A DNA stretch of 64,000 nucleotides, taken from the NCBI GenBank assembly GCA_965215885.1, contig CBDCEW010000100.1:96001-160000 (forward strand), in the 5' to 3' direction. A program made the position numbers and the translations under genes. The stretch's first letter is position 1. Each line of letters starts with the position of its first letter. The notes beneath the pieces were generated by a model. The model was not told the origin of the DNA. It was given only the letters and a program-made list of their open reading frames with translations, and made no database searches. The DNA is from Candidatus Moanibacter sp. (GTDB lineage: Bacteria; Verrucomicrobiota; Verrucomicrobiia; Opitutales; UBA2987). Below, piece by piece: positions 3,249 to 29,891 of the stretch.

Positions 3249-4844
3249 TCAGTAATCGTCAACCAATTGCGGATCGATGCCAGGCATCGTATCGAGTTTC
3301 CAAATATCAACGGGGACGTCGTTTTCCTGACGCGCCCCGGGAGTGCTGCGTCCGTCGGCGACATATCTCTTGAGCAAAGCGAGCAGCTCTTTGGCCTTGT
3401 CCCGGTTCTCGGTGTGCAGGTTGTGCGTCTCACCCGGATCGGCCCTCATGTCATAGAGTTGAACGAGGGGTAAACCCGCTTTGGCAGCGTCGGCGTCGTC
3501 GTGAGTCCAGCCGCCTGATCCAGGGCAAAGCACCAGCTTCCAGCGGCCGTCACGAATGGCGAACTTGCCCGCAATTGAATGATGCACCACTGTGATGCGG
3601 CCAGTTGCGCCAGTTTCGCGGAACAGTGGCATCATGCTTACGCTGTCCTCGCCTGCGTCATCCGGAAGAGTGGCGCCAACGATTTCGGCGACGGTCGCCA
3701 TCAGGTCGGAGAGGCACACAATGTGGTCGCATTCAGTTCCGGGCCGAATAACGCCGGGCCATCTGGCTACACACGGAATACGGTGACCCCCATCCCAAGC
3801 GTCTGATTTGTAACCTCTGTAGGGACCGCTGGGGAAATGCCCCTGCGCCTCCATCTCTTTTGCCCCAATGTAAGGGGCGCAGCCGTTGTCGCTCGTGAAG
3901 ATAACGAGAGTGTTGTCCGCCACGTTGTATTTTTCCAGCGACCGCAACACGCGACCGAATACGTCATCGGTCTCAATCACCAGGTCAGCGTAGAGGTTGT
4001 TCAGACCGCTCTTGCCGATCCACGGCCTGTTGACCGACAGCGGCGTGTGCGGCGAAGTCATGGGCAAATAGAGGAAGAATGGCTCGTCTGCCGCCGCCAG
4101 GTCTCGGATGTAATCGTCCGCCTTCTTGGCCCAGGTCGGCAGCAGTTGCTCGAAATGCCAGTAAGGCATGGCCGGCCCCGAGTAGCTGGCCAGGTTATCG
4201 CCGACCAGACGGGACGGCAGGAACTCAGATGGAACGCCGACGGTGCGGTCGTCTTCGATGAAGCAATAGGGAGGCCAGTTGGGGATGTCCACGCCGAAGT
4301 AATAGTCGAAGCCGCGCGTGGTTGGCCCACCGGTGGTTGGTTTCGAAAATGCGTTTTGCCAACGTGCCTGTTGTTCGGGCGTAGCTTCCAGGTCGTCATC
4401 AGCTACCTGTGTTGTATCCCGATGACGCTGGAAACCCCTAGGATGAAAATCCTCCGCGTTCGCCTCGAAATCCCATCCCTGTCCCAAATGCCATTTGCCG
4501 ATGCAGGCGGTGTGATAGCCGTGCTGTTTAAGCAACTCTGGTACGGTGAGGCGATCTGCGGCAATCAAGGGATCTCCGTAGAGGCCGACAACCCATTTCT
4601 GCAGGTTCGAGCGCCAATTGTAACGTCCGGTCAGCACGCTGTAGCGCGACGGCGAGCATACTGCCGAACTAGAGTGTGCATCCGTGAACATCATACCCTC
4701 GCTGGCCAGGCGGTCGAGGTTCTGGGTATGGATCTTCCCCTCGGGATTCAAGCACGAGGCGTCGCCGTAGCCCATGTCGTCGACGAAGAAGTAGACGATG
4801 TTTGGTCTGCTTGATTGCGTTGCCAAATCCCGATACACGCCCAA
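3249..4844 (-). CDS. Arylsulfatase (formylglycine-dependent)
   Basis: PNIVYFFVDDMGYGD, CSPSR motif, GKWHLG, FTSDNG, GGHRIP; true start may be TTG 4826. Confidence 0.92.
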   Translation of the reverse strand: MGVYRDLATQSSRPNIVYFFVDDMGYGDASCLNPEGKIHTQNLDRLASEGMMFTDAHSSSAVCSPSRYSVLTGRYNWRSNLQKWVVGLYGDPLIAADRLTVPELLKQHGYHTACIGKWHLGQGWDFEANAEDFHPRGFQRHRDTTQVADDDLEATPEQQARWQNAFSKPTTGGPTTRGFDYYFGVDIPNWPPYCFIEDDRTVGVPSEFLPSRLVGDNLASYSGPAMPYWHFEQLLPTWAKKADDYIRDLAAADEPFFLYLPMTSPHTPLSVNRPWIGKSGLNNLYADLVIETDDVFGRVLRSLEKYNVADNTLVIFTSDNGCAPYIGAKEMEAQGHFPSGPYRGYKSDAWDGGHRIPCVARWPGVIRPGTECDHIVCLSDLMATVAEIVGATLPDDAGEDSVSMMPLFRETGATGRITVVHHSIAGKFAIRDGRWKLVLCPGSGGWTHDDADAAKAGLPLVQLYDMRADPGETHNLHTENRDKAKELLALLKRYVADGRSTPGARQENDVPVDIWKLDTMPGIDPQLVDDY

Positions 4845-4895
4845 CGCTTAGCGTAGCCGCGAGGGCGCCAGCCCGAGCTTGCTACTGCGTTTGGT
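4839..4895 (-). other. attC site
   Basis: Minus strand ACCAAAC...imperfect palindrome...GTTGGGC directly upstream of the sulfatase. Confidence 0.65.
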
Positions 4896-5117
4896 TCTAA
4901 GTTTGTTGTTGATTGTTTCGCCCACAATTTTCGATCTTCCTCAGCTCTGTAATTCTGTAAATTCTCAATCACAAATTCGGTCGCTCTTCGGCGTTGGCTA
5001 TGGTTGGCCACAAGAGATCACAAAGAACGCAAAAGGAAAAGGGTTTTCTGTTCTCTGCGTTCTTTCCCGTCTCGGCAGAGCGTAGCGTAGACGGATGTGG
5101 CCATTCCTGTTTTCGAC

Positions 5118-5176
5118 TTAGAACGTCACGGGTGACGCATGTGGAACGTCGCGTCGCCTCCGCCGTTTGGTTCGCT
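5118..5176 (-). other. attC site (59 bp)
   Basis: AGCGAAC-caaacggcggaggcgacgc...gcgtcacccgtgac-GTTCTAA just after a stop codon (5181). Confidence 0.7.
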
Positions 5177-5365
5177 GCTTCTACTGCTCTTCCAACCACT
5201 CGTGTCCGAGCCGTGTGGTGCCATCTTGAAGGATGAAGGGCATGTAGCCCTGGCCAGGATGAAGCGAATTGCTATCGGTGCGCTCCCTGCCTGCGGTGAT
5301 GAAACGGCCCTCAACGAGGTGCCAGAGCAGCCAGCCGATCCCGTGCCGATATGCATCCGAATATC

Positions 5366-5959
5366 TCAATGTGTTGCGCTGTCCCCCCAAATCTCTTTCA
5401 AGCGCCGATCCCGACCACAACCCCAACGATAATATCGATAGCGAACAGGGCTTTTTTTGTAATAATCCTGATGGTGACTCTCTTCACCCTTAATGGGATA
5501 GAAGGTTGATGCGTTTAAAATAGGCGTAACAACCTTTTTGTTGGGGAATCGCTCAACAACCTTCTTTCGAGACTGTTCAGCCAATTTCCTTTCCTCTTCG
5601 TTTGCGACAAAGATAGCACTCAAATAACTCGGACCCTTGTCGCAAAACTGCCCTGTTGCATCGAATGGGTCGATTTGAACCCAGTAATAATCTAACAGAT
5701 CTTTGTAACTGATTTTTTTGGGGTCATAAGTGATTTCGACGGCTTCATAATGACCTTCGTGGTTACCGTTGTAAGTCGGATTTTTGATTGTTCCACCCGT
5801 AAATCCCGAAACCACATCGATGACACCTTCAAGTTTCTCAAAATCTGCTTCCATACACCAGAAGCAACCACCCGCCAACACAGTTTTTTCCGCCACAGCG
5901 TTAGAAACACAGATCAGTAAGCCGATCGACAAGATAAATGCACATTTGTTTTTCATCAT
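5366..5959 (-). CDS. msrA: Peptide methionine sulfoxide reductase A with N-terminal signal peptide
   Basis: AGGCFWC, EAVEITYDP, GQFCDKG, HQDYYKK motifs. Confidence 0.93.
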   Translation of the reverse strand: MMKNKCAFILSIGLLICVSNAVAEKTVLAGGCFWCMEADFEKLEGVIDVVSGFTGGTIKNPTYNGNHEGHYEAVEITYDPKKISYKDLLDYYWVQIDPFDATGQFCDKGPSYLSAIFVANEEERKLAEQSRKKVVERFPNKKVVTPILNASTFYPIKGEESHHQDYYKKSPVRYRYYRWGCGRDRRLKEIWGDSATH

Positions 5960-5999
5960 GTTCGCCGTTCGTTAAGTCGCTTTGCCTTGTTGGGTTCAG

Positions 6000-6257
6000 T
6001 CAGACTTGGACAACTTCTGTAATCCGGACCTCCTTGACCGCATGATCGAGCCAGTAAGAGAAGAGGAATTCATCGATTAGGATATTCTCGATGAGTCTTC
6101 CCGATTCATCCGAGAGCTGATAATCGCTGATTTGGAAAGGATGAGCAGCGATTCTATCGGCGAGGTCTAATACTTTTCTCTGTTTCTGTTTCGGCAGTGT
6201 TATAAGAAACGACGCGGCTTCCATTGAAAGATGGCTTCTATATTCGGGTTCAGTCAT
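6000..6257 (-). CDS. Putative RelE/ParE-like toxin
   Basis: 85 aa, overlaps the upstream small gene; ends FSYWLDHAVKEVRITEV as in RelE-fold toxins. Confidence 0.55.
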   Translation of the reverse strand: MTEPEYRSHLSMEAASFLITLPKQKQRKVLDLADRIAAHPFQISDYQLSDESGRLIENILIDEFLFSYWLDHAVKEVRITEVVQV

Positions 6258-6453
6258 GCCCCAGCTCACTTCTGAGCTCTCCTGTACCCTTCTTTTTTCC
6301 TTCGGCCATCTCATCGAGCCGCCGAGCAGTCTCCTTTTTCCACTCCGGCGTATCCTGACCCAGTTTTATCAGAAAAGCTGAGATCTCACGTCTCTCGGTA
6401 TCAGAGAGACTTGAAAGCTGCTGTTTTAAGGCGAGAAGTGCCGTTCCGGTCAT
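6250..6453 (-). CDS. Putative antitoxin
   Basis: 67 aa helical protein (WKKETARRLDEM); promoter-like TTGACG...AAGAAT upstream; coupled to the toxin-like gene. Confidence 0.55.
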   Translation of the reverse strand: MTGTALLALKQQLSSLSDTERREISAFLIKLGQDTPEWKKETARRLDEMAEGKKKGTGELRSELGHD

Positions 6454-6483
6454 AATTCGATTCTTCCTTTTCTTGGTGAGACG

Positions 6484-7584
6484 TCAATACTTGGAATTAT
6501 CGTGAAAATTCCCGCAACCTACTGTCGCCCACGGCATCATTTCTGTCTGAATCGGTTTTCCTTCTTTTAGCGCCTGGGCGCACGTCAAGTTCAAGTAATG
6601 GTCCTGTGACGCTTCGGCCAGCGAATAGAAAGTTTCTCCGGTGTCTACATATTTGGCCATGTTGGTCAGACAGGTGGCTATTGCAATCTCATCGTCGGTG
6701 AGCGGAGCCGGTGCGAATGGAATCTTGTAGGCCCATTCATCGCCGATCTGGATTCCTTTGAAGTAAATTCCTTCCAGGTTCCCATCGACGCCGGCTGCGT
6801 GACGGACGAACTCAAGTTTGACCGGCGTCAGGAAATCTTTCAGGCAGGTGAGCTCCTTGTTGACAATCTCGCCGCGCACGCCGCGCACAAGCACTCGCTC
6901 ATTGCGTATCCAGGAGAAATACTGATCGCCCGTGAAGTCAAACACACCGAGTTTGTCCCCAAAATCGAAATGGAAAAACTGTTGCGCCGAATCGCGGATT
7001 TCTTCTTTGTCCGGCGGACCACGGCGGTCCGGTCCGGCTATGAGCGGCGATTTGAACGCGTATCCGGTGATGGTGCAGCATTCACACGTGATTCCGAGCA
7101 ACCGCCGGATCAAGCTTATGCCGTGATATCCGTGCGCTGCAGAAACCTGAGCCTGCGAAACAGCGCCGAGTTTGCCGCTTTGGGCTACGGCAATGCGTGC
7201 CGCATGATGCGGCTGCAAGTGGTATTGTTCGGCAACCTGAATCCTCGCTCCCAGCTTGTTCAGGGCCACCAGTCCTTCGACATCCGGAGCCGGCGGCGTT
7301 TCAGAGAGCACCGGTATGTCCCGCTCAGCGAGCAGCTCGATAACTCCCGGATTGACGGGCCATGGCACACTGGTCACCACAAAATCGGACTCGGTGTGGC
7401 CGATCAATTCTTCCGCTGACTCGAACGTCTTCACACCCCATTGCTGTGTAAGTTCCGCTCGCTTTTCCGCGTTCCGCGAAGTCACTCCTGTCACTTCAAA
7501 CCGGTCCGCACATGCACGTGCGATTCGCAGGTAGAATTCCGCGCGCCAGCCCGACCCGACAATTCCGAAGGCAATTTTGTCCAC
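6484..7584 (-). CDS. Gfo/Idh/MocA family oxidoreductase
   Basis: FGIVGSGWRAEFY, VLSETPPA, AHGYHG; GTG start overlaps the upstream stop. Confidence 0.88.
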   Translation of the reverse strand: MDKIAFGIVGSGWRAEFYLRIARACADRFEVTGVTSRNAEKRAELTQQWGVKTFESAEELIGHTESDFVVTSVPWPVNPGVIELLAERDIPVLSETPPAPDVEGLVALNKLGARIQVAEQYHLQPHHAARIAVAQSGKLGAVSQAQVSAAHGYHGISLIRRLLGITCECCTITGYAFKSPLIAGPDRRGPPDKEEIRDSAQQFFHFDFGDKLGVFDFTGDQYFSWIRNERVLVRGVRGEIVNKELTCLKDFLTPVKLEFVRHAAGVDGNLEGIYFKGIQIGDEWAYKIPFAPAPLTDDEIAIATCLTNMAKYVDTGETFYSLAEASQDHYLNLTCAQALKEGKPIQTEMMPWATVGCGNFHDNSKY

Positions 7585-8663
7585 TATTTTTCTTTCTGCT
7601 TCAGTTTTCTTCCGTCTCTGCACCCGCCCTTGCCGGAGTAGGGCATACCCGGGTCCCAGTCGGATGGCGCGGGCGGGTTAAACGTGTCGAGTGGAAACGA
7701 GACTGCGCAACGGTAGCGACTGGATAGGTATGCCGCTTCGCATACCTGCAACGACATGAGCGAACTCTCCGGCACTCTGTAATCCGTGGTCCCGTTGTCC
7801 ATATCTACGGCCATGTTTTCGAGGTAGATCTGATGCTTGTTTATGGCGGCCTCCGGTTCAGGTGCGATGAAGACGCCTTCGGGATGTTCCGGATTCAGCA
7901 GCTTGTAACTCTGTTCGCCAAAGGCATATTCGATGAAGCCTTGAGTGCCCATTATCCTGAATATGGTGCATTCTCCATGGTCCATGATCGAAATGTAGTC
8001 CCCGGTCTGTTGAACACAGCGGATTCCACTCTCCGTTACGACGTAAGTCACCCCCTCAGTTTCTACCTGCATGCCGTCTCGGTAGGTGCGTGTCGAACAA
8101 TCGCAAGCCGCCAGCACGTGATCGATAGGTTCATTGCCAGTGAGGGTAATGAAATAATTGATCCAATGAATGCCTGCGTTGATGATATCCCATTTGTCGC
8201 ATTCAATCTCGACGAGTCGTAGATCGCCCACTGCGCCATGTTTGCACTTCGCGATGATGTCCTTGCCGCAACCGTCCGCGATCATGTTGTGGGGAACGAC
8301 CATGGGAAGATTCCTGCCCTCAATACGTTCCAGAATTTCGGCGCCCGCTTCCGCAGTGTCGCCGAGCGGCTTCTCGACCAGTATTCCTTTCAACGGTAGT
8401 ATCAAAGCATCCAGTGTAATCTCGCGATGGGAAGGGGCCCAAGTGGACACACACACCACCTCTGTCGGGCATTCGGCCAACATCTCCTTGTGGGACGTGA
8501 ACGTGCGAATCCCCGGGTACATCTCTTCGATCACACGACACACTTCCGCCCGCATGTCGCATGCGGCCACAAGTTTGTAACGCTCCGAGGCAGCTAGGGC
8601 GTTCAGGCTCAGACGCCCGCCAGTCCCTGCACCCACCACACTGGCCGTGTAGCTATCAGTCAT
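7584..8663 (-). CDS. Gfo/Idh/MocA family oxidoreductase
   Basis: VVGAGTGG, GILVEKPLG, NAGIHW; 359 aa. Confidence 0.9.
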   Translation of the reverse strand: MTDSYTASVVGAGTGGRLSLNALAASERYKLVAACDMRAEVCRVIEEMYPGIRTFTSHKEMLAECPTEVVCVSTWAPSHREITLDALILPLKGILVEKPLGDTAEAGAEILERIEGRNLPMVVPHNMIADGCGKDIIAKCKHGAVGDLRLVEIECDKWDIINAGIHWINYFITLTGNEPIDHVLAACDCSTRTYRDGMQVETEGVTYVVTESGIRCVQQTGDYISIMDHGECTIFRIMGTQGFIEYAFGEQSYKLLNPEHPEGVFIAPEPEAAINKHQIYLENMAVDMDNGTTDYRVPESSLMSLQVCEAAYLSSRYRCAVSFPLDTFNPPAPSDWDPGMPYSGKGGCRDGRKLKQKEK

Positions 8664-8688
8664 ATTGCATCCTTTACTGCTATCGTTT

Positions 8689-8753
8689 CATCGAACGCCG
8701 CAATCGGCGCGCGCCGTACGTGTTTAGCGTGATGGCAGATGCATTAGTTCGAT
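8689..8753 (-). other. attC-like site (right half clear, left half overlaps a dispersed repeat)
   Basis: ATCGAAC...cgcgcgccgattgcggc-GTTCGAT about 25 bp before the Gfo start; 8716-8758 recurs at 54216-54258. Confidence 0.5.
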
Positions 8754-8997
8754 GTTGGAAGCAAGGGGTCAAGCCTTAGAAGTGTCTGTTTTTCGGGGTC
8801 AGCTGCCTCAATCCTGCCGTACGGCAGGACCCTAAGCCTGCGAAGGGCGGTTTGTAAGGCCTGACCCCCTCAGCGAAGCGGAAAAACAGCCACTTCTTAA
8901 GGTCATGACCCCGAACGGCGAATAGTTCCGCAAGAACTTTAAGACCATAAGCCATCGCGCTATACACGTACCACGCCTCAGTGCGCGGATCGATTCC

Positions 8998-10362: not shown

Positions 10363-10616
10363 TAATAGTGGTATTTGAGCTGAGCCAGGTAGATGGAATC
10401 CTCCCTGAACTTGTAGACCATTCTGTGTTCCTCCGTGATTCTCCGGGACCAATATCCGCTCAGCGCATGCTTCAGCGGTTCCGGCTTTCCCAATCCATCC
10501 GTCGGATTTCGTTTCGTGTCCTTGATCAATGCGTGAATCCTCCTCAAAGTCTTCTTGTCGGTCTTTTGCCACTCAAGGTAGTCCGACCAAGCATTCTCCG
10601 AGAAAATCAGCTTCAT
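10362..10616 (-). CDS. yoeB: Txe/YoeB family toxin
   Basis: AWSDYLEWQKTDKK...GLGKPEPLKH.LSGYWSRRITEEHRMVY...YHY. Confidence 0.95.
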   Translation of the reverse strand: MKLIFSENAWSDYLEWQKTDKKTLRRIHALIKDTKRNPTDGLGKPEPLKHALSGYWSRRITEEHRMVYKFREDSIYLAQLKYHY

Positions 10617-10864
10617 TCGCTGATCTCCCGCTCGGTACCCTTCCCTTCTTCAAGTTCCGCGATCGATTCAAGCAGTCTGCTGGCGTTCTTGGGGCTGCGA
10701 AGAAGGTAAGCCGTTTCCTGCAGGGATTCGTAATCGTCGAGTGACATCATCACCACCGAAATATCTTTTTTCTTGGTGATGATGACCGGATCCCTATCAG
10801 AGACTACCTTTTCAATCGTCTTAGCCAGATTCTCTCGAGCCGTGGTATACGTGATCGCATTCAT
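10613..10864 (-). CDS. yefM: Phd/YefM antitoxin
   Basis: ITYTTARENLAKTI...ETAYLLRSPKNASRLLESI; own promoter-like TTGACT-N16-CATGAT inside the cassette. Confidence 0.95.
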   Translation of the reverse strand: MNAITYTTARENLAKTIEKVVSDRDPVIITKKKDISVVMMSLDDYESLQETAYLLRSPKNASRLLESIAELEEGKGTEREISE

Positions 10865-10912
10865 ATGCCCAGGATCATGGACATGTTTTGGCGGAAGTCA
10901 ATCTCCTATCAT

Positions 10913-10975
10913 GGCCAACGTCCGAGTTCACGGTCGGCGAGGGGATGGCCGGTCCTGCGGAACGATTGGTTTGGC
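10913..10975 (-). other. attC site
   Basis: GCCAAAC...GTTGGCC downstream of the PhyH gene. Confidence 0.75.
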
Positions 10976-11002
10976 AGCTATTCGTTGATTGGCGGTCCGT
11001 GC

Positions 11003-11698
11003 CTACTCAACCGGGAAGAAATGGGAGACAATACCGATTCGCGGCTGGTCGGTTTGATTGCCGGACGAACCGTGAATGCACAGACTGTGATGAAATGCGG
11101 CGTCACCGGGAACCAAGCGGGCATACACCACCTTGTCCAAAGCGGGATCCGGTACCTCGCACGCACGGTGAATTTCATACTTACCCACCACATCCATGTG
11201 GGGGTTAATACCCGTCCGATGGCTACCCAACACATATCCCACGGAGCCGTTTTCGGGATAGCACTCGGTCAACGCGATCCAACAGCTAATGCCGGCTGCA
11301 CTCGCACGTTGACCCTGCCAATAGTGACCGTCCTGGTGCCATTGCACTCGGGCATTGTGATGTGCCGGTTTGGCAATTACCTGCCCATAGGAAAAACGCA
11401 ACGGATAGCCGGTTAGATACTCAGCCAACTGCTGGGCTCGGGAGCGGGAGGGATGCTCAACCAATTCCGGAATCGGACCATCGTCCGTAATTGCAATCTG
11501 CTGTTGACGACCGTGTTTTATATCCTTGTTTCCCTCTTCTCCGAACCCTACATGTCCAAGTTCACCATCTAAGGCCGGACGCAGCAGTTTTAAAAGCTCG
11601 AGGGCTTCATTGTCACTGAGGAGCTTTTGAAAAAACACAAAACCACTGTCTTTGTACCGTTGGCGAAGGGCTGGATCAGGATTGGCAACGGGGTTCAT
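11003..11698 (-). CDS. PhyH family Fe(II)/2OG dioxygenase (cassette gene)
   Basis: WHQDGHYW, YVLGSH, IHGS; followed by an attC. Confidence 0.87.
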   Translation of the reverse strand: MNPVANPDPALRQRYKDSGFVFFQKLLSDNEALELLKLLRPALDGELGHVGFGEEGNKDIKHGRQQQIAITDDGPIPELVEHPSRSRAQQLAEYLTGYPLRFSYGQVIAKPAHHNARVQWHQDGHYWQGQRASAAGISCWIALTECYPENGSVGYVLGSHRTGINPHMDVVGKYEIHRACEVPDPALDKVVYARLVPGDAAFHHSLCIHGSSGNQTDQPRIGIVSHFFPVE

Positions 11699-11709
11699 TT
11701 TGGACTACT

Positions 11710-11828
11710 CCTTTAAACGCCACTTGCCGGTATAGCCGCAAGTCCGCATCAACGTAAACTTCACCCAATCCGCCTTTACCAAGTGGTCGGATATTCTCCT
11801 GTTTCGCGAGTGTCTCACCTGCTTTCAT
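11710..11828 (-). pseudogene. Hanks-type Ser/Thr kinase N-terminal fragment
   Basis: IRPLGKGGLGEVY...LYRQVAFK = glycine-rich loop plus VAxK subdomain II. Confidence 0.65.
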
Positions 11829-11875
11829 GTTTTGTTTGTTTATCGTTAAACGATACGATGAAGCGCGCGCCAGCG

Positions 11876-11936
11876 CGCGGACGTCGGCGTTCACGCGCTC
11901 CGCTTACCGCGTCGGCGTGCGACGCTTTGTTCGAGC
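11876..11936 (-). other. attC site with mutated R' core
   Basis: GCTCGAAC 4 bp after the sulfatase stop matches the cassette start GTTCGAGC; R' reads GTCCGCG. Confidence 0.7.
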
Positions 11937-11940
11937 CCGA

Positions 11941-13383
11941 TTATTTCCATATTCCGGTAATCTCTTGGAACTTATTGATGGGACTATAGGGATCGGGGTA
12001 ATCTTGCCCCTCGTGACTTCTTCGGCAGGATTCAACGAACCGTGATAGTTTCTTCCTCATGTCACGGGCACGGTCCGACTTCTGTGCAACGATATTGGTT
12101 GTCTCTGCAATATCCGCATCGAGGTCGAATAGCATGTCCTCGTGACCGTCCGTGGACAGATTGGTCAGGAACTTGAATCTGCCATCTACCAAGGCGAGCG
12201 TCGGGGCCCCAAACATGGCTGCTTCAGATTCAAGGAAACGATAGGGAATGGGGCAGGGCCGTTCCAAACTCCGTCCTTCAATCAAGGGCATGAGACTGAT
12301 ACCGTCAATCGGACGGTCATCGGGCATGTTGTATCCAAGAAGTTCAACGATCGTGGGGAAGTAGTCGAGCGTGCTACACGGCATTTCGTATTCTGTTTTT
12401 GGTGCTACAATTTTGAGCCATTTCAGGAGTGCTGGCACGCCAATGCCACCGTTGAAGAGGCTACGCTTGCGTCCGCGGAGTCCACCGGTGGTCCCACGAT
12501 TGCGGCCATTGATGGAGAGGTCTTCGCCTCCTTCCGGACCGTTGTCCGAGCAGAACCAAACCATTGTATCTTTGTCGATCCCAAGTTCCTTCAAGGTCCC
12601 GTTCAGTCGTCCGACCTGTTCGTCCATGGCGGTGATGCAGCCATAGTAGTGCTGTTCGTCTTCGCTGAATTCGGAATACATTGCCCGATACTCCGGTCCT
12701 GCCACGACCGGGGTATGGGGCGTGTGGAACCAGATGACAGCCAGGAAGGGAAGATGACGTCCCGCGCATTCCTCAATGAACGGGATGGCCCGGTCAATGA
12801 TCACGCGCGAATCATCACCTCCCAGGTTGTCACGGACGATACAGCCATCTTGGTCCCAGTAGTGGGTGCCGAATGGAGTTGCCGGTTCTCCCCATCGATA
12901 ACCATTCCTTCCCATCTCATGGGGAGTCATCATGGGATCCCATGTCGGCACCTTCGCTTCCGTTGAGAAACAGACATCAAAGCCGTGCAACCATGGTGGG
13001 GAAAGCTCTTCCCTGTGATCGGGTCCACCCCGAATGCTGTCTCTCACAGTGGTTGTCATTGTGCCCAGATGCCATTTCCCGAAGTGACCCGTGCGGTAGC
13101 CTGATGACTTGCAGACACTGGCAAGTGAAATCTCGTTAACAGGCAAGCGCCCTTGGTTAGCGTGTGTCACCCCATAGCGGGAGTAATGGCGACCTGTCAG
13201 GCAGGTCCCACGAGTGGGGGAACACACCGGTCCCCCCGCAAAGAACCGCGTGAAGCGTGCACCTTCCGAACGCATGGCATTCAGGCAAGGTGTTCGAATG
13301 ATTTCATTACCGTTGAAACCTGTGTCTCCGTACCCCAGGTCATCGCACATGAGGAGTACTATGTTTGGTTTGTGCTGCTTCAT
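11941..13383 (-). CDS. Sulfatase (cassette gene)
   Basis: PNIVLLMCDDLGYGD, CSPTR, GKWHLG, FCSDNG; attC on both sides. Confidence 0.93.
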   Translation of the reverse strand: MKQHKPNIVLLMCDDLGYGDTGFNGNEIIRTPCLNAMRSEGARFTRFFAGGPVCSPTRGTCLTGRHYSRYGVTHANQGRLPVNEISLASVCKSSGYRTGHFGKWHLGTMTTTVRDSIRGGPDHREELSPPWLHGFDVCFSTEAKVPTWDPMMTPHEMGRNGYRWGEPATPFGTHYWDQDGCIVRDNLGGDDSRVIIDRAIPFIEECAGRHLPFLAVIWFHTPHTPVVAGPEYRAMYSEFSEDEQHYYGCITAMDEQVGRLNGTLKELGIDKDTMVWFCSDNGPEGGEDLSINGRNRGTTGGLRGRKRSLFNGGIGVPALLKWLKIVAPKTEYEMPCSTLDYFPTIVELLGYNMPDDRPIDGISLMPLIEGRSLERPCPIPYRFLESEAAMFGAPTLALVDGRFKFLTNLSTDGHEDMLFDLDADIAETTNIVAQKSDRARDMRKKLSRFVESCRRSHEGQDYPDPYSPINKFQEITGIWK

Positions 13384-13393
13384 CTACCTTTCG

Positions 13394-13450
13394 CTCGAAC
13401 GCTAAGGACAGGTGCGGCTTCAGGCGTTACCTAAACCGCTTAGTTAGGGG
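13394..13450 (-). other. attC site
   Basis: CCCCTAAC...aggt...acct...GTTCGAG; R'' matches the cassette start GTTAGGGG at 16286. Confidence 0.8.
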
Positions 13451-13614
13451 CCGATCTTCATATATTTTGGTTTCCTGTCGAGCTTCGAATCTCTAAGAGG
13501 ATCTTCGCCCTAATCTCCGTCAAAAGGGGCAATCGGTTCGTGTAAATCTCGTAAACGACCGGTGAACTGCCCTATGGATCGCGGCATGCGCGAGGATCCT
13601 GGCAGTGTCCGGGT

Positions 13615-14951: not shown

Positions 14952-15018
14952 GAAAACAATACTAAACTAACGGTAATAAGAAAAGCACTACTTTTTCAAA
15001 AAAATCACTTTTTTTGAC

Positions 15019-16693: not shown

Positions 16694-16752
16694 GGCGAAC
16701 GCTACTCCTCAGGCGCGGCCTTCAGGACGTCGCCTGCAGGAGATTGTTGGGC
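16694..16752 (-). other. attC site (59 bp)
   Basis: GCCCAAC-aatctcctgcaggcgacgtcctgaaggccgcgcctgaggagtagc-GTTCGCC; close relative of the site at 28701. Confidence 0.9.
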
Positions 16753-16784
16753 AGGCCTGTGTTGGCGACTCCGTGCCTCTGAAT

Positions 16785-18035
16785 CTACCCGTGAAACGAA
16801 GAACCTTTTGTATGATAGACCACCTTGTTGCGGGTGATGCTGTTATTGTTGTTACGAGTGATGATTGGGGTCTCGCGCCAGTTGTAATAGGTGCTTACTC
16901 GACTTAGGGGCAGGTCTAGCAGCAGTTGAACCATATAGGCGACAACACCATTGTTGTGTTTGCCCAACCAGGTCTTGCCATAGAAGTTGGTTTCGTCGTC
17001 CCAGTTGTTGAGAAAGGGCATGAAGGTCTTCGAAGTGTAGTGATCAATCTCATCACCCCGATACTCACGCAGTTCCGGGTATTGCCGGTAGATGCAGCAG
17101 AGCGGGTGCATCTGGTTGAAAGCTGAACAGCCGCTCCCTTCAAAGCCGCCCTTCTCGGTGGCACCACTGAGATGGTAGTCGATAATGTTCTTCGGTTCGG
17201 GAATCGGCCAGTCGAACTGCGCATAGGTGCACAGAATCTTCATGTTGCCGCTGGTGCGGTTGATGAAGTCAGCCTCCAGGCCGCCCCAGTAGCCTTTGCC
17301 CTCCTGGTACTGGCCATCAACCAGCTCCTTCACGTAGTGATAGCTTCCATCAAAGGGCTCCTTGCCGGCCTGGCGTTGTCTGGCCATATGCAGATTAAGT
17401 GCATGTCCAATCCGACCACACGCAGAGTACGGGCTGTCACGCCATGGCAGGCTGTTGAAATAGGTGAGCGTTGATTCCCGCGTCGTCAGATCAGGTTCAA
17501 CACTACCCGGACTGAGTGACTTCAAAAACGACTCATCGCTTCGGGGACGCGGGAATTCCTCTTTATTCATGAAGATGCGGTTGCGTACGATCCAGTCGGC
17601 TTCCCGTTCAAGACCAAAGGCCTCGAGTTCTTCTATCCACTGTTCCAGGATCGCGTCTTCCTTCTTCCGCATGTCGGGATCGTCTGCATCCAGCCACGGC
17701 GGAATGAACCCGAGCGCCCGAAGTTCCGCATAAAACGCCAGTGGATAGTTGGGCGAGGTATAGGCACCCTCATCCATGTGATGCACCTTGCCGCCCGGTT
17801 CATTGGCAAAAAGCCACGATCCTTTGCGAACTCGCGTTGCTTCAAAGAAGCTCCACGACTTTTCAACGCGTCCGGCGATTTCGGTGAAGATATCCTTTAG
17901 CCCTTTGCGTCCGCAGCCGGGGCAGTCAGCCGGATCGGCTTTGGGGATACCGAGCACGTCACGGCAGTCTGGACAGAAATAGTAGACCCGGCTGCGGGGC
18001 CACTGGTCGGGAGGTAGGACTATGTGGGACATCAC
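16785..18035 (-). CDS. Hypothetical protein with N-terminal zinc ribbon (cassette gene)
   Basis: 416 aa; CPDC...CPGC; cassette start GTTGGGC matches R'' GCCCAAC. Confidence 0.8.
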   Translation of the reverse strand: MMSHIVLPPDQWPRSRVYYFCPDCRDVLGIPKADPADCPGCGRKGLKDIFTEIAGRVEKSWSFFEATRVRKGSWLFANEPGGKVHHMDEGAYTSPNYPLAFYAELRALGFIPPWLDADDPDMRKKEDAILEQWIEELEAFGLEREADWIVRNRIFMNKEEFPRPRSDESFLKSLSPGSVEPDLTTRESTLTYFNSLPWRDSPYSACGRIGHALNLHMARQRQAGKEPFDGSYHYVKELVDGQYQEGKGYWGGLEADFINRTSGNMKILCTYAQFDWPIPEPKNIIDYHLSGATEKGGFEGSGCSAFNQMHPLCCIYRQYPELREYRGDEIDHYTSKTFMPFLNNWDDETNFYGKTWLGKHNNGVVAYMVQLLLDLPLSRVSTYYNWRETPIITRNNNNSITRNKVVYHTKGSSFHG

Positions 18036-18061
18036 GCGTCTCGTTTCATCTCTCCAGTCTC

Positions 18062-18140
18062 GCCCAACGCCAGGCGCAGCGGCATTTTTGGAGCGCGGAA
18101 CGCACGGAAAAAATGTCCGACTGCCGCCACTTGTTATGAC
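18062..18140 (-). other. attC site
   Basis: GTCATAAC...gcagtcggacatttttt...aaaaatgccgctgc...GTTGGGC. Confidence 0.92.
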
Positions 18141-18790: not shown

Positions 18791-18973
18791 CATCGCATAA
18801 CTTCATTACTCTGATGTACAGGTAAGCCGTTAGGGGTCAACGGCAAAGCGGAAAAAACCGCGCAATAACCGTCCAGAAAGAACGAAGTATAGTAGGCAAA
18901 ACTCGACGAAGTTCGCTTCGCATTTTCTGAAAAATTTATTGACGAGCCAGATTAGGTGAACATTATTTCACTT

Positions 18974-19306
18974 ATGGAACGCAAGCATGGAACAATACGT
19001 GACCGAATGCGCGAGAAGATGCGAAATTCGTACATGAGCATCCATACCGAAAACGCGTACCTCGGTTGGTGCGGGCGATATGTGCGATTTCACGTCGGTC
19101 GATCGCCGAGTCGGATGGGCGCGACAGAGGTTCAGGCCTTTCTCAATGATCTGACCGTTCACGGCCGGGTAGCGGCGAAAACCCGGAATCAAGCCCTGTG
19201 TGCCATCGTCTACATGTATAAGCAGGTACTTGGACGCGAAATCGGAAAAATCGGAGAGCTGGAGCGCGTTCGGACTCCGAATAAACTGCCTGTAGTATTG
19301 AGGTGA
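18974..19306 (+). pseudogene. intI: Integron integrase, N-terminal third only
   Basis: TENAYLGWCGRYVRFH...EVQAFL...[17 protein letters not shown]...LPVVL, near-identical to the 32290 gene; no catalytic domain. Confidence 0.92.
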
Positions 19307-21091: not shown

Positions 21092-22985
21092 CACGGTATT
21101 TTGATTCTCGGAGCATTAGGTGATGATATTGATGGCCTTATGTAAGTTAAAGACGAAATCATCACAGAGTGCGGGAGTGGATTCAGCGCCCATGGAAGAC
21201 TTGAGGCTGAGAACCAGTTGCCTGCATGCAGCAAGAATTCTGGCTGCGTTATGATTACGGATCATACATCGATCTTCATCGAAGAAGCGATCCCTGGGGT
21301 AATGATTTTTATTTTCGATCGACCAATGGTTGCGAATTTTCGAGAGGAACTGTTGAGGGCTCAAATCGGCGGGATCGAGACTGCTTACGTAGTAAGAGCG
21401 TTCAGAGGAAGGTTCAGCTTTGTTTGGATAATGGAAGGTGCGTTGCACACAGGCGAACTGGCGGGCATGGGGCAGGCCGGCAGAGGGAGCGCTTAGAGAA
21501 TGGGTTGCTATTTGACGTATTTCGAGTCGCCCATGGTCATTGTCCACGGTTTGGTGGAGAAAAAGGGGGTGGAGCTGAAGAGATTCTGAGCGTATTGATG
21601 CATGTTGGGCTGATTGTCTTTAATTTGAATAACATAGTCAGCACTGAGTTCTTCGACGACGATGTGGGCAGTTTCTTTTTGATTATGCATGGCGTCGAAG
21701 GTGAAGGTGGAGCCGTCCAAAATGGGCATCTTTCGCAAGAGAGTCTGGGCGGCGGTGATCGCGTTGGATTTATCGGCGGTAGCGACTTGGGCTAAGGTTT
21801 GAGCGCTTTGGTGATCGACTGCGGCCACCAGGTGCAGAGCCTTTGATTCTTCGGTGTTTGTGCCTTTGAGGGTCTTGCCGTCGACGGCAATATCGCGGGG
21901 CAAACAGCCGTCTTGTAAGCAGATGAATTCGGTGAGGGTTTTATCGAAGAGCTCGGCCTTTACGTTTTGCAAGACCCGATAGAAGACATCATAGCAAGGG
22001 GCCTTATAGCGGCCTGTTTTGGGGTTTTTCCAGGAGCGTAAGGCGCGCAATTGGGCTTGATTGAGATGATGGGCCAGGCGCACGATGCCCTTGAGGGTCT
22101 GTTTGCCGCACATCGTGCCGAGCACAATCATGCTCAGGACCGTGGCGAGCCGATATCTAAGGCCCGCTTTACGACGGAAGTCTTCTATCTGATTGAAGCG
22201 TTCCCACAGGCTGCTCATCTGTTCCACTTTGAGGCAGACCGCATGGGAGTTATCGGTTTCATTGAGCGCCTGGCTCTGTGCCGCGGGCAATGGCCCTGAA
22301 GCGCGCAAAAGCTCAAGGGCATTAGCCTTGAGGGGTTTGACCCAGATCTGCTTGGGACGCTCATGGCGTTGATAGAAATCTTCGCGTTGGCGGCCATATC
22401 CCGCGCTCAAGCCCAAGGGCGTCCACCCGCTCGCTTCGTAGCAAGTGCCCCGGTGAATCTGTGGGTCCACGAACGTTTCCGCTACTAAGGGACGATAGCC
22501 AAAAGCCTCCTGCCAGTGATCGGCTAAGACTCTCAGGCACATACCCAACGTCTTGGAGGCCAAATTTGCAAGATCCACCCCGGGCAAAATCAGAAAACGC
22601 CGGTTCTGTACTACCAGTTTCAATCGTGCATGCCGTTGCGCCCCGTCCCACCCGATCCATTCGTCTCGATCCTTCAGCCGGTAGGATGCGGCCCCCCACA
22701 AGAGCAGGCCCATCCATTGCCCGTCGATCTGCGCCACATAGCGCAGGGTCTCTCCTGCGCTGCCCGCACTGTGTAAATAATGATGTTGTTTCAATAGATC
22801 ATTGAATCGCTCCTGCTCTTCGGGCAGGACCAGACGCAGAGTTAAACGATCTATCGAAGGATTCAGTTGGTAAGATTTTTTGTCTTTCATCCCATCTTAA
22901 CATGACTGATTCCCTCGGGTTTGTTTAGCTCTTTTTTTATCTTCTTGCTTATCAGCTAGTTGCTTCCTGGAATCCTTTTACCCTG
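21092..22985 (-). mobile_element. ISAs1 family element, copy 1 (1894 bp)
   Basis: IRs CAGGGTAAAAGGATTC / CACGGTATTTTGATTC; 10-bp TSD AGTGATTTGG (21082-21091, 22986-22995). Confidence 0.93.
21116..22890 (-). CDS. DUF4338-fused ISAs1 transposase in two frames (-1 shift near 21560-21569)
   Basis: HHYL...RFLILP...NLAS...ETFVDP...GTCY (DUF4338); AVDGKTLKG, TFDAMH, IKDNQP; second frame HGRLEIR...RNHWSIEN...FDEDR. Confidence 0.88.
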
Positions 22986-24213: not shown

Positions 24214-25788
24214 GCCGAACGTTAAAGGCCAGATACGCGACAAATGACAAACAAATTAAAAAAATCGCCTCGTCAGCAGAATCTGTGGGTTATTTCGGGT
24301 TCAGGCAAGTCGCCCATGGTATGAAATAGGGCGATCTTAAGCACTTCGAAGCTCTTAAAGCCGTATGCTTTTCTGATAGTGAGATTTATATTGCGGTTAA
24401 AGCCCTCCACAATGCCGCAGGAAAAGGCCTTTTTGGCCCGAAACCAGTTGAGGATGAGCGGCTCGTGTTTGCGCACCGAGCGCACGAACCTTTTGATCGG
24501 TTTGAGGCGCGAACGCATGGCGCGCGTGCACCATTTTTTCAGATACCATTGGGCCCAGTAGGGACTTTTATAATGCCACAAGAGCTGAAAGCTCTCCTTT
24601 AGTAGATAGGCCCGCACGCTCTTCAGATCGTATTGGAGCACCTCCTTGAGGCGGATCTGTTGGGTGGGGGTGAGATTTGCGGATTTTTGAAGAAACAGTA
24701 TTTGCTTTTGACCAGCACGTTGATGTAGCCGTCCCGTTGCAATCGCCTGGCTTCCGCAGCACGAATCTCATTGAGGGCCTTGTTCAGGTTGGCTACCAAG
24801 TGGAAGCGATCGAGGATGTGCAGCGCCTGGGGTGCCTTTTTCTTGATCACTTTGAGGTAAGGCTTCCACAGATCCGAGCAGACGTAGAGGATCTGGCTGC
24901 TCTTTTGCGCTCCCAATTCCCAGAAAAAACGCAAGAGCGATTTTACGTTGCGCTTATTGAATACGCCCAATAGCCGCCGCCGCCCCTCGTCAAGCTGGTA
25001 GACCACGGTGAGATAGTGATGGCCTCGATGATACTGCACCTCATCGACTCCGATCGCCTCAATCCCGCTCATATCGCGCCGTTTGAGCCCCCAACGCACC
25101 ATCGCCTCGACCGACTCGAAGACGTTGCGCCAGTTTGCGAAAAACCCTTGCCGTCTCTTCCCAGCTCAAGCGCCTCGCCCACTGGGCCAGAAAATTGCAT
25201 TGGCCAACTCAGATGACTCTTGCCCTTGGCCCAGGGCACCTCTTCGACCTTCACCCCGCACCGCCGGCAATTGACCCGCCGCATGCGGTAACGAAAATAC
25301 ACCTTCATCCCCCACAAGGGCACAAATTCAAAATGCCTCGCCTCGCTCATGTGGTCGTAGCCGCTGGCCGTCCGGCCACACCCCGAACAGCACACCCGAC
25401 TATTCTTGCGCGGCTCAATCTGCACCACAATCGCCTCCACCGATTTCACCATTTCCATACTCGCCTTTGCGTAAACAAAGCTCTTTAGCAATTCAGTAGC
25501 GTTTTGATGAGCACTGGGTCCTCCGTGTTCAGGATGTATTTTCGGTACTACTTTCATCCTCGGAACGGCCCGGTGCTTCAACCTTTCAATCCCATATGCA
25601 AAGAAAACACCGACCAGCCCCTCCGGCTGTGGAGGAGCGGGATTCAGGGCAGCGCCCTGACTTCTCCTTGTGCTCACCGACTCTATTTCCTCTTGTAAGC
25701 GACGTTACCCACCCACAGATTCTGCTGTAGACCCAAAAAATCTAAAACAAGAACCTTACACCGCGTTATCTGGGCCGACTTGTTAGGT
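24214..25788 (-). other. attC site split by ISL3
   Basis: Left arm ACCTAAC...ccagataacgcg (25788-25735) and right arm cgcgtatctgg...GTTCGGC (24266-24214). Confidence 0.85.
24267..25734 (-). mobile_element. ISL3 family element with multiply frameshifted transposase
   Basis: IRs share CAGCAGAATCTGTGGGT; 8-bp TSD AAAAAATC; CSGC/CRRC zinc finger, IGVDE, LDRFH, VEGFN..I...RKAYGF spread over three frames. Confidence 0.92.
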
Positions 25789-25795
25789 ATTTCTT

Positions 25796-26934: not shown

Positions 26935-26945
26935 TTCGTTTTTGT

Positions 26946-27029: not shown

Positions 27030-27037
27030 AACACCCT

Positions 27038-27460: not shown

Positions 27461-27482
27461 TGAAATTCCTCCTATTCTGACT

Positions 27483-27633: not shown

Positions 27634-27654
27634 CGGAGGAGCGAAGCGGATCCG

Positions 27655-27717
27655 CAGGAACGTTAAAACTCTCACACGACGGCGCTAGCCGGCGTTGTGA
27701 GCAGTGCTTGGTTAGAC
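27655..27717 (-). other. attC site
   Basis: GTCTAAC...ctcaca...tgtgag...GTTCCTG. Confidence 0.85.
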
Positions 27718-28080
27718 ATTTTTGATTGCTTCAGTAGCGAAATGTGTCGCGAGTCGATTGATAACTGAAAAGACCAATGATCCTCCCTTCGAGGATATGA
27801 CGGTCTTAATTTTGTTCCATACTTTATCATCCCTTATTTTTCCAAGAAACTCGTGACCCTCCCAAGTGAGCTCAAATGGTATTACGTAGATGACTCGATC
27901 ACTCGTGCTCGATGTAACTGGTTCGCACCTCAATAAACCTGCATCATGGAGCAGTACAAGATGAGTCTTGATAGTGAATTCTTCGTACCCCTCAATTGGT
28001 GGCACGTCAATACGTTCGGGTGTTTCCCTTTCTTCGAAAAAGAGGAGTAGTTTTCGAACTAGCTCAAAGTCTCGTTTCAT
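27712..28080 (-). CDS. DUF2513 family protein (cassette gene)
   Basis: MKRDFELVRKLLL...HLVLLHDAGL...LTWEGHEFL.KIRDDKVW. Confidence 0.88.
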   Translation of the reverse strand: MKRDFELVRKLLLFFEERETPERIDVPPIEGYEEFTIKTHLVLLHDAGLLRCEPVTSSTSDRVIYVIPFELTWEGHEFLGKIRDDKVWNKIKTVISSKGGSLVFSVINRLATHFATEAIKNV

Positions 28081-28087
28081 AATTTTG

Positions 28088-28211
28088 GTCTAACGTACCA
28101 GCCCACCCACAGACGGGCGAGAAGGCGTGCGGCGAACTATTTGAAAATGAACTTGCAAGAAATTTTGAAATCAATGCCGTCCGTCTGTTGGCGTGCCGCG
28201 TCTTGTTAGCC
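28088..28211 (-). other. attC site (124 bp)
   Basis: GGCTAAC...cagacgg...ccgtctg...GTTAGAC. Confidence 0.88.
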
Positions 28212-28553
28212 AATTAGAGTTTTGAGATTTTGAACAGCCTTTTCATACCTCTCTTCATCATAAGCTTCCGTAAGGATGGATTCCGCGCTTGCTGCCTCTA
28301 CGAGTTCGAGAACGTGGCTTGCCAGTTGCTTGACCGATTCTTCGGTTTCCTTGAGTTTCTTGAACTTTATGTCCAACAATTTTCCAGCCGTTAGTCTTTC
28401 AAGTGTTCCGTCGAAGAATATGAGTCCGAACACCACAATCGACAATACGATAAGCGCGAGAAACGTGGCTTCTCCGACAATACCCTTCACGATCAATATG
28501 GACGATCCAGACACGCCTAGGATCAGGAGAGTTACTGCTATGGTTCTTTTCAT
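28206..28553 (-). CDS. Hypothetical 2-TM membrane protein (cassette gene)
   Basis: 115 aa, two hydrophobic helices then a coiled-coil-like tail; stop inside R''. Confidence 0.75.
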   Translation of the reverse strand: MKRTIAVTLLILGVSGSSILIVKGIVGEATFLALIVLSIVVFGLIFFDGTLERLTAGKLLDIKFKKLKETEESVKQLASHVLELVEAASAESILTEAYDEERYEKAVQNLKTLIG

Positions 28554-28700
28554 TTTCGCGGGGTTGTATTGGTTATGCTCTCTTCCCTTTCGGGTGATAG
28601 ACTCGGCAATTCGTTGGTTGTACGAGCTCTTATCCTTTCCCTTCGGGCTGATCGATTTGGGTTTCTATTAGGTTTTCGGGAAGGTAACTGGATTTTTGAT

Positions 28701-28759
28701 GGCTAACGGTATGAATCAGGCGCGGCCTTCAGGCTGTCGCCTGAATTCGATTGTTCGCA
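28701..28759 (-). other. attC site (59 bp)
   Basis: TGCGAAC-aatcgaattcaggcgacagcctgaaggccgcgcctgattcatacc-GTTAGCC. Confidence 0.88.
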
Positions 28760-29891
28760 CTCGTTCTCCGTGGTCCGGTGAGCCGATTCGCCATTCGATG
28801 CGTTCGACATCCCAGTCACGGTCAGGCGGCTTCACGCTCTCAAACCCCCAGAACTCCGTGGTAGGTTCCCCGGTCTGCGGCTCGCCAAACAGAGGGTCGT
28901 ATGGCGAGTAGAGCGAACCGAAGCGGAATACATGGTCGCCCTTTTCCATTGGCACGAAGTGTATCCCATCTTCCGACCAGTGTATCCACCGCTCAACACC
29001 TTTGCCGAAGTTGGGAATCATGAGCATGCCGTGCTTGTAGCGCCAACAGAAATGGCCGTGGCCTATCAGAAGCGGATTGCCTTCGTACTTCCGGTAGGGC
29101 CCTGTTAGGGTGTCGGCGATCGCCAGCCCGTTCTCGGTCGGCACGCCGTTGCGAATCCCCTTGTAGTACATGAACCATTTGCCGTCGAGATACACGTGCC
29201 TCGGGTTCAGAACTCTGTCACTGTCCCAGCGCTTGCCGTCCATCGCGGGTTCCACCAATACATCGACTCCGGGTGGCAGTGCCCACGGCCCGGCCGGCGA
29301 GTCGGCAACCAGGCAAGAGATGCCGACCATCCGATGCCCGTACTTCTCGATGTTGGTCGACCACACTTCAGTAAATAGATGAAACCGGCCTTCGTGGAAG
29401 ACGACATTGGGCTGTTCTAGCAGGAGGTCGTAACACGAGCCTTCCGGACCAAGGGGGAGATGGCCATGTGCCGTCCACTGGTGCGTATCCTCCGAGGTCA
29501 GATACAGGATCCGTGACGAGTCGGGTCTGAAGTCGCGACCTTCCGGCGTCTTGAAGAAGTCGGGATTTGCCCAGTAATGCGCCTCGGCGCACTTTGCGCG
29601 ATCAAGATCGATCATCCACATATGGTACTTGCCACCGTGGTAGACGACCCGAGATGGATCCGATTGCCAGTTATTGAGATTCAGGTTGACGTTCTCGGGG
29701 TTGCTAATCCAGCTGAGATTGCTGGATGTTCGCGTCTTCCTGATGCTCTTGAGCTCCGGCGGTATCGCATATGTACCTTCTGCTGCACGAAAGTAGATTC
29801 CGTCCTCGTCCAGAGCTCCTCTATTCGCTGCTCGGTCCATAGTCCGTCTGTCTTCTCTGTTGCGAACGTCGAAGCTACGAATCGAGGGCAC
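28716..29891 (-). CDS. GH117/GH43-like five-bladed beta-propeller glycoside hydrolase
   Basis: SDPS..YHGGKYHMW, TSED..QW, ADSPAGPW, WDS..V.NP, MYYKG, GLAIAD..TGPY, WSEDGIHF; ORF reads into the attC; 5' end may be clipped by an IS remnant. Confidence 0.7.
   Translation of the reverse strand: MPSIRSFDVRNREDRRTMDRAANRGALDEDGIYFRAAEGTYAIPPELKSIRKTRTSSNLSWISNPENVNLNLNNWQSDPSRVVYHGGKYHMWMIDLDRAKCAEAHYWANPDFFKTPEGRDFRPDSSRILYLTSEDTHQWTAHGHLPLGPEGSCYDLLLEQPNVVFHEGRFHLFTEVWSTNIEKYGHRMVGISCLVADSPAGPWALPPGVDVLVEPAMDGKRWDSDRVLNPRHVYLDGKWFMYYKGIRNGVPTENGLAIADTLTGPYRKYEGNPLLIGHGHFCWRYKHGMLMIPNFGKGVERWIHWSEDGIHFVPMEKGDHVFRFGSLYSPYDPLFGEPQTGEPTTEFWGFESVKPPDRDWDVERIEWRIGSPDHGERVRTIEFRRQPEGRA

Follow-up and report, generated by a model that had tools for sequence, protein, structure and literature searches.

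The 64-kb window analysed here (positions 96001–160000 of contig CBDCEW010000100.1 of Candidatus Moanibacter sp., within a 6.36-Mb assembly of 105 contigs) harbours an integron whose array includes genes for sulfatases, a glycoside hydrolase (GH)-like protein and further catabolic-type enzymes. For the Ffh protein of this genome, named relatives with 66–69% identity come from Coraliomargarita, Oceanipulchritudo and an Opitutales bacterium, and these best matches place the host most likely in Opitutales (Verrucomicrobiota). Comparison of sequences makes it probable, in our judgement, that large enzyme cassettes were captured horizontally by this sedentary chromosomal integron and subsequently domesticated, which would constitute a minor entry route for such genes. 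Cassette anatomy, occurrence of the same families as cassettes elsewhere and apparent recent exchange of cassettes between arrays can be read directly from the sequences, and most att sites of the window are decayed. Integron cassettes are usually short and serve resistance or defence. Here, the cassettes occupy the minus strand from 29867 down to ~4845 and encode toxin–antitoxin (TA) pairs, GNATs, msrA and GrpB in addition to the catabolic-type enzymes, and insertion sequences (IS) are also present. Divergent from this one-strand array lies the gene for the integron integrase IntI (32290..33222, plus strand; 310 aa), which scores 431 bits with TIGR02249 at a cut-off of 265. A motif check revealed an intact R-K-H-R-H-Y pattern, whose positions we take to be the catalytic ones. 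All open reading frames (ORFs) and families named in a preliminary description of this stretch were recovered at their positions.

Recombination sites were analysed with a home-made attC model, R1, which was derived from other cassettes of this genome rather than taken from IntegronFinder and whose E-values are rough. An alignment of 24 attC bottom strands (A1) was reduced to 19 by removing one row with a tRNA-like sequence, recognized by eye, and four misaligned rows. In the training set the inner helix is 92.9% paired, 14 of 15 pairs carry changes on both sides, and the covariation score was reached by none of 500 shuffles. Application of R1 to the window returned 15 matches, every one of them on the bottom strand and between 4839 and 29929, that is, a one-strand array with a covarying L-box stem and extrahelical bases. 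Six window sites belong to the training set and are not counted as tests. Among the sites postulated in the preliminary description, held-out scores support those after the GH and PhyH genes (28701–28759, 33.4 bits; 10913–10975, 25.4 bits) as well as those at 4839–4900 and 13394–13449, which precede the two sulfatase genes (36.1 and 32.0 bits), whereas the own site of the sulfatase gene at 11941 is weak (16.6 bits, E 0.16) and the site before the Gfo/Idh/MocA pair gives no match. A search of Rfam yielded 0 matches. A free scan for AAC...GTT hairpins was too noisy and was dropped.

The GH117-like gene is the cleanest cassette case in the window. Its cassette comprises 1160 bp (28708..29867, minus strand; gene probably 28716–29840), and the core GTTCGCA at its start is complementary at 7/7 positions to the R'' core TGCGAAC of its own attC, which forms a canonical hairpin that folds better than shuffled sequences (z −3.65). 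The att-like site in front of it (29861–29925, minus strand) scores 16.3 bits with R1, and its left arm is cut by a 324-bp multi-copy element (29926–30250); a query across this element returned 197 blastn matches. The element is non-coding and also occurs near an attC on another contig (C18). No promoter-like site was seen in 29800–30350. The best PDB matches of the encoded protein are GH117-type enzymes (E 2e-17 to 2e-11), and Pfam yields a weak GH43 match below the cut-off. The Asp of an RDPS motif and the His of a GHE motif align with those GH117 residues that we presume to be functional, and the Glu after the His does not.

Relatives of this gene recur as cassettes. Within the same genome, a copy with 82% amino acid identity heads the cassettes of another integron, on contig C105, where it has the same core, another attC loop and another downstream neighbour. 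Searching metagenomes yielded 23 loci, 21 of which were scanned with R1 (L036 and L037, at 27% identity, were left out); an attC directly follows the GH gene in two of them, L015 (83%) and L019 (80%). In L015, the GH gene is a solitary cassette right behind an ordinary 812-aa gene, and the reconstructed target reads G|CT. In L019, the cassette is followed by a URO-D gene, which lies behind an attC but has cores that do not match. In a tree of 17 rows, from which near-duplicates and fragments were left out, the four GH cassettes and the attC-less gene of L016, which sits in a dehydratase–GH–sulfatase cluster, form a clade with 100/100 support, and the sister genes (70–74%) lack attC. A single origin of the GH cassettes was neither supported nor rejected on this tree (p-AU 0.23). 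The GH cassettes nest within non-cassette genes (70–77% identity) and carry three different attC loops among the four of them, which might point to repeated acquisition or swapping of attC. No relative was found in 300 other genomes of the order, and none of eight genomes of the same family holds a close one.

The gene for a 480-aa sulfatase (11941–13383; Cys-type CSPTR motif; Pfam Sulfatase) occupies a cassette of 1549 bp (11852..13400, minus strand) that starts with GTTCGAGC and ends with GCTCGAAC, that is, with an 8-bp contiguous complement, as the preliminary description had noted. With GTT and AAC held fixed, such a complement has a chance of ~4^-5. Since it is found across 1549 bp, we take the gene to have entered as a cassette. 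The crossover at its start is supplied by the attC (13394..13449, minus strand) of the preceding TA cassette, which is interrupted by IS66; this attC folds no better than shuffles. The sulfatase gene's own attC is not intact: it carries GTC for the GTT core and is part of a fused site (11845..11935, minus strand), composed of the own site at 11876–11935 and, at 11845–11875, an orphan right half that belongs to a different attC. Neither the own site (z +0.25) nor the fused 91-mer (z +0.91) folds better than shuffles. As judged from the loops of sister sites, this junction could have arisen when the stretch between two short repeats was deleted along with a cassette, one repeat lying at an attC's end and the other where the loop of a later attC starts. 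Next in the array is a PhyH dioxygenase gene (11003–11698) in a probable cassette of 932 bp (10920..11851, minus strand). The attC that had been described behind it is there in partly decayed form, but only 5/7 core positions match and folding does not exceed that of shuffles (z +0.08).

With the site between them damaged in this way, the sulfatase and PhyH genes are predicted to behave as one unit. A sequencing run from another study (X11; ~96.5% identical) provides a comparison. One of its contigs spans 11718–13448 with 60 differences and an overlapping one spans 10978–11746, each then continuing into other sequence. Hence, the two genes remain joined and their neighbours differ on both sides, which suggests co-mobility, as judged from this one other strain. 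Coverage holes of the run are not taken as evidence of absence.

As to the origin of the 480-aa sulfatase, its best paralogue within the genome is 30% identical and no close relative exists among the eight same-family genomes, while proteins with 70–81% identity occur in other samples and taxa, two of which are named and derive from metagenome-assembled genomes of Verrucomicrobiota and Chloroflexota. Two relatives with 73–74% identity sit in tandem sulfatase clusters. Searching other contig sets added one irrelevant locus among genome contigs and three distant loci among viral contigs. GC and GC3 (third codon position) contents do not clearly separate the cassette enzymes from the host. The motifs CSPTR and CSPSR in the sulfatases of the window, together with PF00884, predict formylglycine-dependent (S1) sulfatases, and the genome has a gene with an FGE-sulfatase domain (284 bits); no anaerobic sulfatase-maturating enzyme scored above the cut-off in the genome. 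Matches in PDB are a mixture of aryl-, steryl- and carrageenan sulfatases (E 1e-51 to 1e-44), and inspection by eye revealed no signal peptide.

A second sulfatase gene (3249..4845, minus strand; probable start TTG 4826) has its start at the GTT of a well-scoring attC (4839–4900), abuts the next Gfo gene and has no attC of its own, there being none directly downstream in the window. Five relatives were found in 300 genomes. The closest orthologue (78–81%), from a genome of another family (G513), is a complete cassette of 1663 bp bounded by GTTGGGT and ACCCAAC; its attC scores 39.7 bits with a fold z of −3.86, it lies downstream of the attC of a TA cassette, and its 5' core (GTTGGG-) is the same as that of the window gene. 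Because this orthologue is a complete cassette, the window gene is best read as a former cassette. The four remaining relatives (53–61%) have no attC beside the gene. G513 also encodes an IntI, and the next cassette in its array, 1853 bp with 7/7 cores, carries a gene for an oxidoreductase dependent on flavin adenine dinucleotide (FAD). Another genome (G085) holds a solitary 1747-bp cassette with an FAD-oxidoreductase gene of the same Pfam family. An FAD-oxidoreductase at locus L076 is a fragment only and was set aside.

Two further large cassettes belong to the genome under study. A third sulfatase gene resides on contig C4 in a cassette of 1452 bp with 7/7 cores and an attC of z −2.0, and a 416-aa protein is encoded in the window by a cassette of 1368 bp (16701..18068, minus strand), likewise with 7/7 cores, whose attC reaches a held-out score of 40.8 bits and shows 78% similarity to the one behind the GH gene. 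The latter protein has no Pfam match, the Atlas offers a weak lead to prenyltransferase-like repeats only, and two paralogues in the genome share 32–35% identity with it. Altogether, cores complementary over 7–8 bp delimit eight large cassettes (the 480-aa sulfatase, GH and 416-aa protein cassettes of the window, the C105 GH, the C4 and G513 sulfatases, and the FAD-oxidoreductases of G513 and G085). Two other loci were recorded in passing: on C105 (L046, 5779–7686), the gene for a 635-aa prolyl oligopeptidase lies between two weak attC sites and could represent a very large cassette, and in G055 (L080, 260–1441) a strong attC directly follows a gene for a bacterial nitric-oxide synthase oxygenase.

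The case of the Gfo/Idh/MocA pair (6484–8663) is less direct. The pair lies in a 3.57-kb segment (5125..8696, minus strand), together with a TA-like pair and msrA, that starts at the GTTCGAT of a half attC (8690–8710). The first full attC downstream of the pair, at 5118–5176 (cores 6/7), lies past the TA-like and msrA genes. A perfect ATCGAAC/GTTCGAT combination precedes the pair and was rejected as a full attC; since R1 finds no match and the left arm lies in a multi-copy repeat (46 blastn matches in the genome), we count it as a half-site. The earlier statement that both the second sulfatase gene and the Gfo pair begin right after GTT cores thus stands for the former and, for the latter, is reduced to this half-site. 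Gene order across the segment is the same in an independent run (X3), a contig of which spans 4780–8773. An origin of the pair as a cassette is plausible.

Evidence for recent traffic comes from two small cassettes (27662..28707, minus strand; a 115-aa protein and a DUF2513 protein), which are duplicated at 99–100% identity in the C4 array of the same genome. The two copies diverge at GTT cores on both sides, and a block this similar with such borders argues for recent site-specific exchange between arrays.

The preliminary description had further proposed that the integron samples and shuffles catabolic paralogues and could drive the expansion of their families. In its strong form, with the sulfatase, Gfo and PhyH families expanding because the integron actively excises, duplicates and reshuffles their members, this is distinctly unlikely in our view. 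Scanning the whole genome gave 64 attC-like sites, and genes were examined for a strict signature, i.e. 7/7 cores plus L-box pairing, with genes of at least 200 aa as controls. The signature is present in only 2 of 55 testable sulfatase genes, 1 of 43 Gfo, 0 of 37 PhyH, 2 of 4 GH117-like and 15 of 3369 other genes, and the Gfo gene in question, on C69, is isolated and probably a chance match. 7/7 cores alone, which occur by chance in 122 of the 3369 control genes, are not enriched either (sulfatases p 0.14, Gfo p 0.21, PhyH p 0.75). The best in-genome paralogues are only 30–36% identical. R1 finds matches in 41 of 120 other genomes of the order, and the 48 ORFs flanking the best site in 29 of these include no sulfatase, Gfo, PhyH or GH gene; two encode FAD-oxidoreductases. 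On the other side, the four families together reach 5/139 against 15/3369, a comparison in which the families were picked after the fact and the window genes are included. Moreover, the GH cassette family is present twice, in two integrons of the genome, and a fourth sulfatase gene, in addition to the C4 cassette as the third, sits among attC remnants. Domestication erases attC and would thus make old captures invisible; the strict test cannot detect sites that are erased completely, and it overlooks the PhyH gene and the second sulfatase gene of the window. From the strict-signature counts and the survey of flanking ORFs, large catabolic cassettes appear as a recurring minority; in this genome they account for a few percent of the large enzyme families and have added little to family size. 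What persists of the proposal is that the integron samples catabolic enzymes: cassettes and former cassettes with relatives in other arrays and genomes are present, even if most sites are decayed. Related genomes and metagenomes bear this out for the G513 sulfatase, the FAD-oxidoreductases of G513 and G085 and the GH cassettes of L015 and L019, but not for the other sulfatase and Gfo relatives, which lack attC.

A different explanation holds that the enzymes are resident genes which became flanked through insertion of small cassettes at attG sites and never were cassettes themselves. Insertion at attG is documented (available text of bioRxiv 2022.09.11.507474), and this genome has single attC sites between ordinary genes (Gfo–attC–lpxB and ribH–attC–esterase). 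The second sulfatase gene at the array end without an attC of its own, the Gfo pair behind a half-site only and the tandem sulfatase clusters that hold the 73–74% relatives of the 480-aa enzyme would also suit it. We nonetheless regard it as unlikely, as it leaves unexplained the complementary cores of 7–8 bp, the recurrence of one GH core in different arrays and the complete G513 cassette with matching 5' core, and as close relatives of neither the 480-aa sulfatase nor the GH gene turned up in the eight genomes of the same family. To the Gfo pair it may still apply. That chance motifs or an assembly chimera produced the picture is very improbable. The array is repeat-rich, and the controls demonstrate how often 7/7 cores arise by chance; against this stand the confinement of all 15 R1 matches to one strand inside the array, the intact cassettes of the same families in other genomes and the independent runs X3 and X11, whose contigs span parts of the array; the run data contradict such an origin for the sulfatase, GH and Gfo–msrA segments.

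Capture followed by domestication, which we favour, could proceed as follows. The cassette pool of the integron would hold full-length single-gene enzyme cassettes of 0.9–1.9 kb, and recombination of the IntI type at G|TT, with the role of IntI itself presumed, would bring them in from outside the lineage. After insertion, attC sites would erode through small deletions and through insertion of repeats, miniature inverted-repeat transposable elements (MITEs) or IS, so that neighbours become fused, as may have happened to the sulfatase and PhyH genes, to the Gfo pair with the TA-like pair and msrA, and to the second sulfatase gene with the downstream Gfo/PhyH genes. The fused genes may then become a fixed part of the chromosome; damage to the sites is observed, and the sequence of events and an end to excision are our reconstruction. 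In this way, the integron would add new, unrelated enzyme members rather than copies of resident paralogues.

Several observations weigh against this model. For none of the enzyme cassettes did the data reveal excision, a circular form or an empty site. The breakpoints of run X11 do not coincide with G|TT, the attC at 13394–13448 being retained and divergence past the PhyH gene setting in from 10978; these breakpoints point to plasticity of the array, and the rearrangement need not be the work of IntI. An attC is found beside none of seven genomic relatives of the 480-aa sulfatase (46–74%; from 4/60 and 3/400 genomes), nor beside the one relative of GfoB (57%; 1/350 genomes), and 250 genomes contain no close relative of the PhyH gene. 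The R1 model is home-made and fails to detect the attC of the C4 sulfatase. No attI was seen adjoining the intI gene at 32290, and an IS and a MITE lie between this gene and the array. The ATG upstream of it, at 32258, is not in frame, and IntI may therefore lack ~11 N-terminal residues. Finally, the assembly is fragmented into 105 contigs with 5.5% contamination. GC and GC3 (third codon position) contents do not clearly separate the cassette enzymes from the host.

We found no report of integron cassettes encoding sulfatases or GH117-like enzymes in the literature searched, which consisted mostly of open papers without supplementary catalogues (PMC7370490, PMC10661359). According to the available text of PMC7370490, cassettes have a median of 402 nt and carbohydrate metabolism is the most depleted class (odds ratio 0.158), and 'sulfatase' has 0 occurrences in that text. 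For chromosomal integrons, a median of 362 bp is given, with long cassettes being rare and their genesis largely unknown (available text of PMC5371416); both sources, in these portions, suggest that long cassettes mark strong selection. Verrucomicrobiota are among the integron-bearing phyla (available text of PMC8618304). The repertoires of sulfatases in the PVC group have been ascribed to rearrangement and horizontal transfer in a paper with 0 occurrences of 'integron' (PMC4807772), and elsewhere sulfatases were located in a genomic island, not in a super-integron (PMC3091676). Mobile elements generally carry carbohydrate-active enzymes and affect sulfatases, with no tie to cassettes in the available text of bioRxiv 2025.02.12.637893.

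Its divergent IntI, one-strand array, R and L boxes, IS insertions and cassettes with TA, GNAT and unknown functions place the system beside sedentary chromosomal integrons, clusters of attC sites lacking integrase (CALIN) and single attC sites lacking integrase (SALIN). It differs from them in a cargo that includes 1.1–1.9 kb genes for sulfatases, glycosidase-like enzymes and FAD-oxidoreductases. Catabolic enzymes as cassettes are also known from the Sydney Tar Ponds, where the authors raise a drift toward specialised catabolic arrays (available text of PMC2669170). In contrast to those PCR-amplified cassettes for aromatic breakdown, sulfatase and GH117-like genes are found here in genomic context, with 70–77% identical non-cassette relatives and visible fixation. 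Fused cassettes have been described for class 1 integrons, namely blaOXA-10/aadA1 and blaGES-1/aacA4 (available text of PMC8876359), whereas the sulfatase–PhyH fusion is chromosomal and catabolic. Insertion at attG, SALIN, domestication of cassettes and loss of attC by slippage are treated in bioRxiv 2022.09.11.507474. With that model, as far as its available text goes, our data share loss of attC and solitary cassettes in ordinary chromosomal context (GH in L015, FAD-oxidoreductase in G085), and they depart from it in providing natural examples with large enzymes and in the L015 target, G|CT in place of the GWT consensus. In short, known machinery here carries cargo that is unusual and well supported, and its domestication can be seen. 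The locus thereby names one vehicle for the transfer of sulfatase genes and displays steps of their fixation, and the cassette and non-cassette relatives are close enough for their junctions to be compared, a comparison relevant to the origin of cassettes. More tentatively, and perhaps less probably than its alternatives, Verrucomicrobiota integrons might tap a pool of large catabolic cassettes made recently from ordinary cluster genes, and capture with erasure of attC might supply a real, hidden share of sulfatase repertoires. If so, matched sets of donor genes and cassettes would give a natural handle on the mechanism of cassette genesis.

A number of further features accompany the array. 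A truncated second intI gene (18974..19300, plus strand; 91% amino acid identity to IntI over 98 residues) is adjoined by an attI-like stretch (~18791–18860) that would head the left part of the array. All three intI promoter regions contain a GAAC-N4-(G/T)TTC box (32241–32254 and 18957–18970 in the window; ~15100–15112 at locus L006 of C105, where it is a perfect palindrome), which resembles the Gram-positive type of LexA box rather than the Verrucomicrobia motif. Between intI and the array lies a multi-copy element of the ISAs1 type (30260..32143, plus strand); inverted copies of its transposase gene, which encodes an N-terminal DruA-like domain, bracket part of the array (21508–22890 and 30345–31727). 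An ISL3 element (24214–25790) has inserted into an attC loop, both halves of which remain, and for the IS66 (13545–15790) within the TA cassette an IS-free allele exists in run X3. An RNA run (X7) has contigs on the sulfatase, Gfo and 416-aa protein genes, yet it provides no evidence of expression, because its IS66 depth mirrors that of the DNA runs. Single attC sites follow ordinary genes at C90:93211–93272 (locus L043; Gfo before lpxB) and C105:288752–288821 (L044; ribH before an acetylesterase gene), and three more lie between phosphatase, methyltransferase, HAD and NUDIX genes at C47:12987–14478 (L047); these sites could be attG scars or intermediates of cassette genesis. The Gfo gene on C90 was rejected as a cassette because of its position before lpxB and because its cores are not complementary. 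Lastly, locus L006 of C105 contains two tandem reduced group II intron-like sequences within the array (10440–11900) and, in a cassette, a partial ORF resembling aminoglycoside 3-N-acetyltransferase (12312–12947).

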